In this document: piece after piece, positions 47,461-64,000 of the stretch
Layout of the letters: the number at the start of each line of letters is the position of its first letter
Numbering within the stretch: position 1 is the stretch's first letter
Assembly (NCBI GenBank): GCA_018654745.1
Contig: JABILA010000092.1
Location: 1,729 to 65,728, forward strand
Source of the DNA: Alphaproteobacteria bacterium
GTDB taxonomy: Bacteria; Pseudomonadota; Alphaproteobacteria; UBA2966
DNA length: 64,000 bases
Direction of reading: 5' to 3'
Made by a program: the position numbers and the translations under genes
The notes under the pieces: model-generated
Told to the model about the DNA's origin: nothing
The model's input: only the letters and a program-made list of their open reading frames with translations
The model's database searches: none

Positions 47461-49188
47461 ATGGCCGACAAGATGGCAAAAGACTGGCTGAAAGATATCA
47501 GAAAGCCGCTCACGCCGATGTATCGCGAAATCGCTGTGATTTCGCTGTTCATCAATGCGCTTGCGCTTGCTGTGCCGGTATTTGTCTTGCAGATTTACGA
47601 TCGGGTCATCAATTCAGGTAATATCAGCACCCTTCAAGGCCTCTTGATCGGCGTTGGCTTTGTTTTCGCTTTTGACTACATCCTGCGCCAGTCCCGCTCC
47701 CGCCTTATGCAGCGCGCGGCGCTGAATATTGATGTGACCCTTGGCCGGGACCTGTTCAACAAGATCATGGCCTTGCCACTGTCTATTCTTGAGGCCCGGA
47801 CCTCTGCTTATTGGCATGCCCTTTTCAAGGATGGTGATACGGTCCGCAATACCTTGTCGGGTCCCAGCGCATTATTGATCGTTGACCTGCCATTTGCGGT
47901 GATGTTTATCGCCGTCATTTATCTAATCGCATCGCCCATTATCTGGGTGTTATTGCTTATCCTGCCAACATTTGTATTGCTGGCGTGGCGGTCGGCATCG
48001 TCTGTCAGCGCGGCCGCCGGCGAAGAACGCAAGGCCGGGTTCAGTCGCGATACGTTGCTTTCAGAAATTGTTGCTGGTCGTAACACAGTGAAAGCGCTGT
48101 CGCTGGAAGAGGACCTGAAGCCCCTTTGGGAAGATCGCCAGGCAGACAGCATCAAACGCTCAATCATGCGCGGCAACAGGTCGGACAAATATTCAAATCT
48201 GGGCGCAGGGCTGGCAGCAGCTGCTACTGTCGCCATGACCTCTGCCGGTGCATTTGCCATTATGGCAGGCGATATGTCCGTTGGTTCGCTGATTGCCGCC
48301 AACATGCTGAGTAACAAGGTTATTGGACCCTTTAACCAATTGGTCGGGTCCTGGCGTGCCTATGCCGGGTTCAAACAGGCCGTTGAACGCCTGACAGACG
48401 CCTTCGCCATGCCGCAGGAGCGCACAGAGATAAGCATTGCTCACGAGCGCCCTCGTGGTCGCATCAATCTTGAACACGTGCATTTCAAGTATGCGGAGGA
48501 CAGTCCATCCATCATTAATGGCGTCCGCCTGCAAGTTGACCCGGGTGGTGTTATCGCTGTTGTCGGCACAAACGGTTCCGGGAAAACGACACTGATCAAG
48601 ATGCTTCAGGGTCTTTACCGACCGACGCAAGGACGTGTCTTGCTGGATGGTGCTGATATCAACCAGTTTACGCGTCAGGAAATGGCGCAATGGATTGGCT
48701 ATGTCCCCCAGGAGACATTTTTGTTTACGGGTACAGTCCGCGACAACCTCGTCAAGGGCCGCCCCGAAGCGACTGATGATGAACTGGTAGAAGCCGCAAA
48801 AAAGTCCGGCCTGCATGATCTTGTTATTGATTTCCCGGACGGATATGCCACAGATATTGGCGAAGCTGGTGCCAGGCTGTCTGGTGGAATGCGCCAGAGA
48901 TTATCAATTGCACGTGCCCTGCTGGGTGATCCACCAGTGCTGTTACTGGATGAGCCTTCATCAAACCTGGATCGTGAAGGCGAAATGGAGTTGATGGAAA
49001 CGCTGAACGGCTTGGCAGAAAATCACACGATTATGGTTATCAGTCATGCCCCTGGCGTACTCTCACAGTGTCGGCAGGTCCTGGTCATGCAAAAGGGTCG
49101 TATTGTCCGCAGCGGCCGTCCATTGGATGTTCTGCCGCACCTTTTGGGTACCAACAGCGCACCACCAATCTATCAACGCCAAGCGTAA
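47461..49188 (+). CDS. Type I secretion ABC transporter (permease/ATPase, no N-terminal C39-like domain)
   Basis: INALALAVPVFVLQIYDRV, DLPF, Walker A GTNGSGKT, YVPQE, LSGGMRQR, LLLDEPSSNLD. Confidence 0.92.
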   Translation: MADKMAKDWLKDIRKPLTPMYREIAVISLFINALALAVPVFVLQIYDRVINSGNISTLQGLLIGVGFVFAFDYILRQSRSRLMQRAALNIDVTLGRDLFNKIMALPLSILEARTSAYWHALFKDGDTVRNTLSGPSALLIVDLPFAVMFIAVIYLIASPIIWVLLLILPTFVLLAWRSASSVSAAAGEERKAGFSRDTLLSEIVAGRNTVKALSLEEDLKPLWEDRQADSIKRSIMRGNRSDKYSNLGAGLAAAATVAMTSAGAFAIMAGDMSVGSLIAANMLSNKVIGPFNQLVGSWRAYAGFKQAVERLTDAFAMPQERTEISIAHERPRGRINLEHVHFKYAEDSPSIINGVRLQVDPGGVIAVVGTNGSGKTTLIKMLQGLYRPTQGRVLLDGADINQFTRQEMAQWIGYVPQETFLFTGTVRDNLVKGRPEATDDELVEAAKKSGLHDLVIDFPDGYATDIGEAGARLSGGMRQRLSIARALLGDPPVLLLDEPSSNLDREGEMELMETLNGLAENHTIMVISHAPGVLSQCRQVLVMQKGRIVRSGRPLDVLPHLLGTNSAPPIYQRQA

Positions 49189-49301
49189 GCTTTGGTCTAC
49201 AGTACTTGCAATTTTTCGTGACAAGTCACATTTGGTTAACGGATAATGTCTAGTTTTGGTATTATTCAAGTGATTTACCGCAGAAAGCAGCTTTTGAAGC
49301 C

Positions 49302-63100: not shown

Positions 63101-64000
63101 GAAACCGAGATTTCGAAATCATTACTACCTTGTGGCACCGTCACGCTCAAGTCGGTCAAATCGCCACTGGTCAATGTCCAGGTGCCATCCTCGTTGTCAG
63201 TGCCAGCAGAAAGCACAGCGCCCTCAGGCAGACCGCTAACAACCAGAGACAAGCTTTCAGAGCCATCTGTATCCGTCAGGTTGGAAGTTATATCCAGCGG
63301 ATATTCGACAGAGCCAGCATCTCCTTCAGAGGTCTCAAATTCGATTGAGTTAATCAGGAAATCATCACCAGCGCCTGGGGCTGAAAAGACGATCTGATCA
63401 AAGGCGCTACCATCATCCGCGGTGATAGAGACCGCTGGATCAATACCATCGCTACCGCCAACGACAGTTCCTTCGCCGACCTTTACACCGTCTTGATAAA
63501 GTTCATAAGTTGCATCTTCACCGGAATGTTTCCAGGCAAAAGCCACATCCACTGATGTGACTTCCTGATCAAACTCAATGAGCATTTCTTCAGAAACATC
63601 GTGCTCTGAATTGTAACCCAATTCTGAATCAGCACCTGAGGCCGAACCACTAACACCAAATCCTTGTGGGTAACCTGACTGGATGCTGATACTGTCACTT
63701 GAAGCGTCAGTCAGGTCACCATTCGCATCAACTGTCCGGCCAGAAACAGTAAACCCGTTTTCGCTATTCAGAACATTGCCTGAATCGATGGTGACATCCA
63801 CCGTTTCACCTGTACCGGCAATTACTTCGCCCTCACCGACTGAAACGGTCAAGGTTGGTGCATCCGCAACACCCGCAACCTCAACTGTCATTTGATCCGT
63901 AGTGGTTGTGGTCGAGTTACCGTCCGTCGAAGTGACAGATACAGACAGGTCGAAGTCTGCATCAGAGTCCTCGGCAGGGGTGACTGTCAGGCCGGTCAGA
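60190..64000 (-). CDS. Large RTX adhesin / T1SS substrate; 3' part only (5' end beyond the window)
   Basis: Reading frame stays open from 63999 ([20 protein letters not shown]...), so ATG 63891 is not the true start. About 100-120-aa Ig/cadherin-like repeats (DAPTL...GATL...L.ITP), many GGxGxDxLx nonapeptides, C-terminal LYYD secretion-type end; very acidic. Confidence 0.92.
   Translation of the reverse strand, partial: [1269 protein letters not shown]
60500..61580 (-). repeat. RTX nonapeptide (Ca2+-binding beta-roll) blocks
   Basis: [93 protein letters not shown] and more. Boundaries approximate. Confidence 0.9.
61696..61761 (-). repeat. 9-bp tandem repeat encoding (EGG)n
   Basis: Plus strand (CCGCCTTCT)-type units, encoding [23 protein letters not shown]. 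Confidence 0.9.
62020..63035 (-). repeat. Three related Ig-like repeats of the adhesin
   Basis: Three copies of IP.[24 protein letters not shown].ITP, with synonymous DNA divergence. Boundaries approximate. Confidence 0.88.

Follow-up and report, generated by a model that had tools for sequence, protein, structure and literature searches.

In a 64,000-nucleotide stretch of an Alphaproteobacteria bacterium genome (assembly GCA_018654745.1, contig JABILA010000092.1, positions 1,729 to 65,728; this whole stretch is referred to as the window), the gene of a membrane receptor with a degenerate HD-GYP domain stands back to back with that of a LapG-like cysteine protease, close to type I secretion system (T1SS) genes and a giant RTX adhesin gene. 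We consider it probable that the DvhD/DvhG system, the form of the Lap inside-out adhesin switch that has no LapD, is represented here by an alphaproteobacterial member. The data that carry this reading are: 1) homology of the receptor modules and of the protease to DvhD and DvhG; 2) loss of the metal ligands in the HD-GYP domain; 3) linkage of the two genes in relatives; 4) absence of LapD; and 5) an adhesin N-terminal module with an AAG motif conserved in position. A preliminary description of the window had already proposed a DvhD/G-like inside-out system, which these data support; the precedent named there is real and is the right comparison, DvhD and DvhG being DVU1020 and DVU1019 of Desulfovibrio (Nitratidesulfovibrio) vulgaris Hildenborough (PMC10990149, PMC13090378).

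Receptor and protease

The receptor gene and the protease gene point away from each other across a spacer of 169 bp, where about 200 bp had been estimated before, and the adhesin gene lies beyond the protease gene. The features concerned are as follows.

56945-59164, minus strand: DvhD-type receptor (two transmembrane (TM) segments, dCache, PAS, HD_5), open reading frame (ORF) of 739 amino acids (aa), likely coding sequence 56945-59134
58955-59026, minus strand: receptor TM1
58079-58954, minus strand: receptor periplasmic dCache
58010-58078, minus strand: receptor TM2
57551-57919, minus strand: receptor PAS
56987-57529, minus strand: receptor degenerate HD-GYP, with LMNLGK at 57365-57382 and QVQEKWDGSGPKG at 57185-57223
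59165-59333: intergenic region of 169 bp that separates the divergent receptor and protease genes
59334-60050, plus strand: DvhG/LapG-type BTLCP cysteine protease, 238 aa (PF06035, NF045674)
60190 to beyond 64000, minus strand: giant RTX adhesin, C-terminal 1269+ aa (11 HemolysinCabind matches)

Homologues of the receptor begin at M11, so its coding sequence is probably 56945-59134, with the start that had been assigned to it earlier. Two hydrophobic segments (residues 47-70 and 363-385) enclose a 292-residue periplasmic domain, and the cytoplasmic part comprises a PAS domain (about 416-538) followed by HD_5/HD-GYP (about 546-726; HD_5 E 1.6e-26); domain scans and a reading of the motifs agree here with the preliminary description, which had portrayed a 2-TM protein with a Cache-like, a PAS-like and a degenerate HD-GYP domain. 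In the latter, LHDIGK is replaced by LMNLGK (HD to MN, residues 595-600), HHE by VQE and GYP by G-P, with the Tyr deleted, and this degeneracy is common to all 20 aligned family members. With the HD, HH and GYP metal/catalytic motifs lost, the receptor is predicted to be a binder and not an enzyme; having no intact HD, HHE or GYP motif, it is likewise predicted to stand outside the class of catalytic HD-GYP phosphodiesterases.

By PDB sequence search, profile alignment and fold, the closest match of the receptor is DvhD, the comparison that the preliminary description had suggested as a check. A single-sequence search gave the DvhD PAS/HD-GYP crystals (9rc0/9rbz) as best PDB matches (E 5e-36), and a family profile retrieved them at E 1.7e-58, ahead of V-cGAP3 (5z7c; 4e-33) and PmGH (4e-24). 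Hhalign of a 20-homologue profile against full-length DvhD, as given in Supplementary Data 2 of PMC13090378, yielded probability 100 and E 1e-39 over 618 collinear columns, including periplasmic motifs such as RNLL and NA.L. The DvhD dCache crystal was not retrieved by sequence search, be it with a single sequence or a profile, and was reached by profile-profile and fold comparison only. For the latter we modeled residues 71-362 with AlphaFold 2 from a 78-sequence alignment (predicted local distance difference test (pLDDT) 88.6, predicted template modeling score (pTM) 0.86); the best PDB fold match of this model was 9rc2, the DvhD periplasmic domain (E 4e-10, template modeling score 0.75), which ranked above McpH, Mlp24 and other dCache domains. 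The strongest periplasmic conservation in the receptor is ENASLQLYMTEL, helix 44-55 of the model, located directly after a break in the long first helix; in this placement it corresponds to DvhD helix alpha1', the DvhG-binding surface of DvhD as proposed from an AlphaFold 3 model only (PMC13090378). The receptor thus displays two TM segments flanking a DvhD-fold dCache, collinear PAS and HD-GYP domains as well as absence of the metal ligands.

The protease retains the intact Cys-His-Asp triad that had been ascribed to it: Cys156 (59799-59801), His191 (59904-59906) and Asp206 (59949-59951) sit in GDCEDY, AHAVL and LDN blocks that align with the LapG structures 4fgo and 4u65 and with DvhG. PF06035 (Peptidase_C93) scored 68 bits vs. 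a cut-off of 27, the LapG equivalog model NF045674 matched below its cut-off, and the BTLCP domain of DvhG aligned over 182 residues with 38% identity (E 8e-41), taking in an N-terminal F.TIE..LK..PKW segment that lies outside the LapG alignments. The GDCEDY block is identical to that of LapG and DvhG; going by the LapG literature, the D and E beside the catalytic Cys are presumably active-site-adjacent Ca2+ ligands. At its N-terminus, SRRRLL, a hydrophobic stretch and AEA-A resemble a twin-arginine (Tat) signal, and the protease gene is the sole C93 gene in the genome. Signal peptides are present in most DvhG orthologues (PMC13090378).

A protein search at E<=1e-10 returned 723 members of the receptor family, and the scan of species-representative genomes gave 214 receptor-family loci, nearly all of them in marine or aquatic Rhodospirillales, Thalassospiraceae or Magnetovibrio-type metagenome-assembled genomes (MAGs). 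Linkage was counted in the best 80 of the 214 loci, 73 of which had enough upstream sequence. The protease gene was the divergent neighbor of the receptor gene in 56 of these 73 informative loci (77%), and a C93 gene was located elsewhere in 11 of the 16 genomes without an adjacent copy; co-occurrence of lapG with the receptor gene in related genomes, on which the preliminary description had staked its reading, was thereby observed. The receptor-protease pair has an RTX/FecR adhesin gene at its side in roughly every second locus, as exemplified by a 4008-aa FecR/Cadherin/HemolysinCabind protein.

Absence of LapD and the probable adhesin N-terminus

That no LapD is encoded in the window had been noted before, and the contig of the window indeed yielded no GGDEF or EAL match. 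Extending the search to the 94.7%-complete genome, as had been advised, we found no match to LapD_MoxY_N (PF16448) and no LapD-type protein. Run over 201 genomes of the phylum, the same PF16448 search was positive in 47, with matches typically in ORFs of 640-680 aa, so the negative result in this genome is meaningful. The only two GGDEF-EAL ORFs of the genome, one with a receiver-like N-terminal region and the other with a roughly 130-residue soluble N-terminal region, have no hydrophobic/TM segments, and neither is of the LapD type. As for the receptor itself, Pfam detected none of LapD_MoxY_N, HAMP, GGDEF and EAL.

The adhesin piece in the window comprises repeat domains, RTX nonapeptides at about 60514-63375 and a C-terminal secretion region, LapA-like features that are accompanied by ABC, HlyD and TolC genes within 13 kb. 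The gene leaves the window at 64000 and its contig 101 nt further on. Its N-terminus is probably the 1949-aa ORF at C85:99475-105321 (+), which leaves contig C85 mid-repeat, a join that draws on contig ends and on the close relative G001. C85 provides the only other contig end in the genome with the repeat type of the window adhesin; the ends of C85 and C143 (the contig of the window) have no exact sequence overlap, and both break in one repeat type. In G001, whose receptor is 82% identical, a homologous adhesin N-terminus (82% identical, with DDLIETAAGG) shares its strand with the RTX end that adjoins the protease gene and is found 19 kb upstream of this end. The C85 ORF begins with a small DvhA-type beta domain (containing LLVADFTREGPDLLIEGPGGEQVLVQDYF), followed in turn by FecR (E 1.4e-7), an acidic linker of about 200 aa and a helical stretch, and carries a TAAG site (NVDDQIATAAGGDQ; DDQIATAAGG) at ORF position 540. 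At the equal position, [T/P]AAG(G) recurs in five homologues beside receptor-protease pairs (PAAGG in L085, TAAGN in L019, TAAGG in L050 and L020, TAAGP in L025). The N-terminal retention module and cleavage motif that the preliminary description had wished to see retrieved have thus probably been located on C85, with the motif conserved in position among relatives.

The genome encodes at least two adhesin paralogues (C73:3615-7193 and C71:2-3670), whose N-terminus is likewise made of a small domain and FecR, with DEAFAAAG; the frame of the C73 paralogue is broken inside the acidic linker, and further N-terminal fragments are found at the C73 end and the C74 start. In G001 the giant adhesin (L086; G001:C4:137200-156800) is split within its repeats into ORFs of 1190 aa (N-terminal) and 4972 aa (C-terminal), probably by a frameshift or assembly error, which suggests a joined protein of about 6000 aa. 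A gene for a 598-aa protein with PG_binding_1 and a weak TPR match (L082:11385-13181 = C85:97384-99180) immediately precedes the adhesin N-terminus and has the same orientation.

Secretion and accessory genes

Gene calls for 44-64 kb of the window, made from the ORF listing with Pfam and NCBIfam scans, begin with an MscS-like channel (minus strand) and ArsC (plus strand) and continue with the genes below, up to the receptor gene.

47461-49188, plus strand: T1SS ABC permease/ATPase, 575 aa (Pfam ABC_membrane and ABC_tran)
49302-50615, plus strand: HlyD-family T1SS periplasmic adaptor (TIGR01843, 365.8 bits, above cut-off)
50727-51308, plus strand: dCTP deaminase (dcd)
51316-53799, minus strand: class III nucleotidyl cyclase with a fused CHASE2 sensor (Pfam CHASE2 and Guanylate_cyc)
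53909-56071, plus strand: TolC-like outer-membrane channel (two Pfam OEP matches, TIGR01844); the true start may be downstream of 53909
56038-56913, plus strand: periplasmic protein with the fold of formylglycine-generating enzyme (FGE)-sulfatase proteins, PvdO-like (PF03781, E 8e-51)

All genes named in the preliminary description were found at the positions assigned to them, and the clustering it had reported, of a T1SS ABC transporter, HlyD, TolC, an RTX adhesin and a LapG-like protease with its triad, is confirmed for 47.4-64 kb with one correction, namely that the dcd gene interrupts the cluster. This gene is present in the nearest relative (L002), is absent at the equivalent place in the 88%-identical P0008 locus and lies outside the switch system. 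In about nine loci, the FGE-fold gene, TolC, CHASE2 cyclase, HlyD and ABC form a syntenic block on the downstream side of the receptor gene, and these five genes stay together down to 52% receptor identity.

The ABC transporter has no N-terminal C39-like domain, its match to TIGR03375 (LssB) extending from model position 133 onward only, and its homologue in the P0008 locus has 575 aa as well. Absence of a C39-like domain is unusual for the ABC transporter of a giant RTX adhesin. In the TolC-like protein, the C-terminal roughly 220 aa (55400-56071) are acidic, disordered-looking and rich in repeated ANPF motifs, and such [N/D]PF-repeat tails are conserved in L002, L003, L004, L075, L013 and L016. 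The start of the FGE-fold gene overlaps the TolC stop by 34 nt, and the FGE and OEP pair is kept beside the receptor gene in L085, where other T1SS genes lie elsewhere, and in the P0008 locus. The FGE-fold protein has an N-terminal hydrophobic signal/anchor and many Cys, and matches the PvdO model at 189 bits, below cut-off. Its C-terminal RGGSW region, which we take to be the site of the catalytic Cys pair in true FGEs, contains no Cys, which makes the protein unlikely to be a true formylglycine-generating enzyme.

The best PDB matches of the CHASE2 cyclase are the adenylate cyclases CyaB (3r5g) and CyaC (1wc1); it keeps the Lys of GTIDKYMGD and has Ser where CyaB and CyaC have Thr, both positions being ones that we presume to be adenylate signatures of class III cyclases. 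It is therefore predicted to be an adenylate cyclase and is a candidate accessory gene of the cluster; about 9 related loci have it in synteny, with TolC on one side and HlyD on the other. In one lake MAG (L019:3910-7191; protein P0094), the receptor ORF is fused in frame to the CHASE2 cyclase. We rejected this fusion as Rosetta-stone evidence: the last ~50 HD-GYP residues and the first TM helix of the cyclase are missing, and without that helix CHASE2 would face the wrong membrane side. The fusion probably arose by a deletion or misassembly, and it matches the removal of the FGE and TolC genes.

The preliminary description had regarded the CHASE2 cyclase, the FGE-fold protein and the NPF-tailed TolC as parts not known from described Lap loci. 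Nothing relevant came from searching the literature for CHASE2 in connection with T1SS adhesins. CHASE2 or adenylate/guanylate cyclase proteins are, however, already tabulated in 10 of 78 published DvhDG neighborhoods (Supplementary Data 1 of PMC13090378), while being absent from the main text; judging by accession proximity, the CHASE2 entries are all Desulfovibrionales. As for the other two parts, the terms "Formylglycine" and "SUMF1" are absent from that table, and neither the FGE-fold protein nor an NPF-tailed TolC was found in it by name.

No c-di-GMP (cyclic di-GMP) riboswitch or other Rfam element was found near the adhesin, receptor and protease genes. Elsewhere, the window carries a SAM_alpha riboswitch at 21982-22060 (plus strand; 73.9 bits), consistent with an alphaproteobacterial origin, and a tRNA at 19314-19384 (minus strand).

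Proposed switch, alternative explanations and known systems

Drawing on D. vulgaris as the analogue, we postulate that the giant RTX adhesin would be exported C-terminus first via the ABC/HlyD/TolC type I system and would get stuck in the TolC-like channel, its N-terminal module (the small beta domain and the FecR-like domain) being unable to pass. The dead HD-GYP domain of the receptor would bind a cyclic dinucleotide, most likely c-di-GMP, and the signal would travel through the stalk, the PAS domain and the TM helices to the periplasmic dCache, which would interact with the BTLCP protease and restrain it. Upon a drop in nucleotide level, the protease may then cut the adhesin at TAAG behind the retention module, whereby the adhesin would leave the surface. 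The genome has 13 GGDEF and 8 EAL matches, and from the former it can probably make c-di-GMP.

To see how far the receptor resembles DvhD in its nucleotide pocket, we mapped the DvhD contact residues onto it via HMMER alignments, with the family state taken from 20 members.

L577 (canonical): kept in the receptor; invariant or nearly so in the family
M646 (canonical): kept in the receptor; invariant or nearly so in the family
R650 (canonical): kept in the receptor; invariant or nearly so in the family
Y652 (canonical): kept in the receptor; Tyr in most members, His or Trp in 3 of 20
Y523 (canonical): Phe in the receptor
K582 (canonical): Met in the receptor; about half of the family members have Arg
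Y621 (canonical): deleted in the receptor
E668 (canonical, guanine-specifying): Leu in the receptor; most relatives have E, Q or D
P567 (bridging): kept in the receptor; invariant or nearly so in the family
K520 (bridging): Arg in the receptor, near-invariant
R569 (bridging): Glu in the receptor

A conserved nucleotide pocket in the receptor family is likely from these alignments, and we infer, by analogy with DvhD and its affinity of 322 nM for c-di-GMP (PMC10990149), that c-di-GMP would be the ligand of the receptor.

Several observations weigh against assigning the locus to the DvhD/DvhG system. Overall identity between the receptor and DvhD is only 28%, periplasmic similarity is detectable by profile and fold only, and even for DvhD the receptor-protease contact is an AlphaFold 3 model (PMC13090378). 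Three of the eight canonical c-di-GMP contacts are changed (K582 to M, Y621 deleted, E668 to L), so c-di-GMP binding by the receptor cannot be assumed; moreover, Y523 is replaced by F and the bridging-site R569 by E. The adhesin N-terminus is on a separate contig, joined by inference and not from reads. With rough residue frequencies, one [TAP]AAG per about 1950 residues is expected ~0.8 times by chance, and PAAG is present inside the extracellular repeats too; as a lone [TAP]AAG is not significant, it is the conserved position that supports the site.

The changed contacts, with the guanine-specifying E668 among them, also raise the question of whether the same architecture and output could answer to a different ligand, e.g. 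3'3'-cyclic GMP-AMP (3'3'-cGAMP) or, more speculatively, cyclic AMP (cAMP) from the CHASE2 adenylate cyclase. 3'3'-cGAMP is accommodated by DvhD as well (PMC13090378), and the second-best PDB profile match of the receptor is the cGAMP-specific HD-GYP 5z7c. For cAMP, one may cite the position of a cyclase with adenylate-cyclase signatures between TolC and HlyD, syntenic down to 47% identity, and the recurrence of CHASE2 proteins by DvhDG in the published neighborhoods. We nevertheless deem a different ligand unlikely: conservation extends to half of the c-di-GMP contacts and to the bridging-site Pro, the GGDEF matches of the genome speak for c-di-GMP, most family loci have no CHASE2 gene nearby, and the sole receptor::CHASE2 fusion looks like a deletion and not a functional fusion. 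To our knowledge, no HD-GYP domain binds a cyclic mononucleotide. In a related vein, we speculate that the CHASE2 cyclase might be a dedicated second input to DvhDG-type switches, whereby an envelope signal would act via cAMP on adhesin export or retention, through the altered receptor pocket or another cAMP effector, with the FGE-fold protein and the TolC [N/D]PF tail as clade-specific anchoring parts; this proposal is doubtful, to about the same degree as a different ligand.

It is less likely still that the receptor is an outside-in sensor, its dCache binding a periplasmic small molecule for inward signaling or as a scaffold, with a protease that is constitutive or otherwise regulated and adjacent merely for co-expression. 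Some room is left for this, insofar as dCache domains are usually ligand sensors, the fold matches include many chemoreceptor ligand-binding domains and the ligand status of the DvhD dCache is unresolved (PMC13090378), but a dead HD-GYP domain offers no catalytic output, the top periplasmic conservation (ENASLQLYMTEL) matches alpha1', where DvhD is predicted to bind DvhG, 77% of informative loci have the protease gene next to the receptor gene, and control of DvhG by DvhD was c-di-GMP-dependent in vivo. Chance clustering, in which the receptor, protease and T1SS/adhesin genes would be neighbors without functional connection, is disfavored and in our view highly improbable. A housekeeping gene, dcd, does lie inside the cluster and many relatives do not have their T1SS genes beside the receptor-protease pair; yet this pair is conserved down to about 45% identity, has an RTX/FecR adhesin gene beside it in about half of the loci and is homologous to a pair experimentally linked in D. 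vulgaris.

If the locus is indeed of the DvhD/DvhG type, HD-GYP-based control of adhesins by DvhDG would not be a peculiarity of Desulfovibrio and would extend to a large family in marine Rhodospirillales-like Alphaproteobacteria, and c-di-GMP-controlled attachment might be predicted more widely, in genomes without lapD. Questions raised for the DvhDG field include the altered nucleotide contacts, the FecR-type retention module, a CHASE2 cyclase recurring in two classes, an FGE-fold partner of TolC and the TolC tail. What is new is one further lineage, a dsr-carrying marine alphaproteobacterium (a sulfur oxidizer), together with the clade-specific parts and the pocket substitutions. The genera Pelagibius, Kiloniella, Fodinicurvata, Sneathiella, Denitrobaculum and Oceanibacterium, which we take to be Alphaproteobacteria, bear on the extent of this novelty. 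All of them are included among the 78 homologues in Supplementary Data 1 of PMC13090378, in which alphaproteobacterial homologues are thus already listed and DvhDG is mapped at class level in Fig. 9b. The basic discovery, the DvhDG switch, is also published: DvhD/DvhG of D. vulgaris has been reconstituted in P. fluorescens (PMC10990149, 2024), control of DvhG was c-di-GMP-dependent in vivo (PMC10990149, PMC13090378), and structures of the DvhD dCache, PAS/HD-GYP and c-di-GMP-bound HD-GYP have been solved (PMC13090378, 2026). Hence, while the reading in the preliminary description holds, its novelty had been overstated.

Among known systems, the catalytic HD-GYP phosphodiesterases (PmGH 4mcw, V-cGAP3 5z7c, RpfG type) have a fold in common with the receptor, whose motifs are lost. 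The LapD/LapG/LapA system of Pseudomonas fluorescens, also found in Vibrio, Legionella and Bordetella, is alike in its T1SS-anchored RTX adhesin, its periplasmic BTLCP protease acting at a di-alanine and its inner-membrane receptor reporting a cytoplasmic cyclic dinucleotide, but the receptor described here is unrelated to LapD in all domains. The contact between a LapD tryptophan and the LapG pocket is absent in the Dvh type (PMC13090378). Compared to DvhD/DvhG itself, differences are evident in several respects: 1) HD is MN here and SQ in DvhD, with the Tyr of GYP deleted here; 2) the protease has a cleavable-looking Tat-type signal in place of the TM anchor and 180-aa linker of DvhG; 3) the retention module, about 60-90 aa in DvhA/DVU1545, is much larger here, with a small beta domain and FecR and, before TAAG, an acidic linker of about 200 aa; 4) the two genes are divergent here and in one operon in D. 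vulgaris; and 5) the FGE-fold protein, the CHASE2 cyclase and the TolC tail are extra here, and the ABC transporter has no C39-like domain. The likeness, on the other hand, extends to a receptor with two TM segments, a DvhD-fold dCache, PAS and HD-GYP without metal ligands, a BTLCP protease with the C-H-D triad and, in its N-terminal part, the F.TIE..LK..PKW segment, T1SS genes in the immediate neighborhood, an RTX adhesin whose N-terminal retention domain is followed by [T/P]AAG, the absence of LapD and more than one candidate adhesin substrate per genome, as with the two of D. vulgaris.

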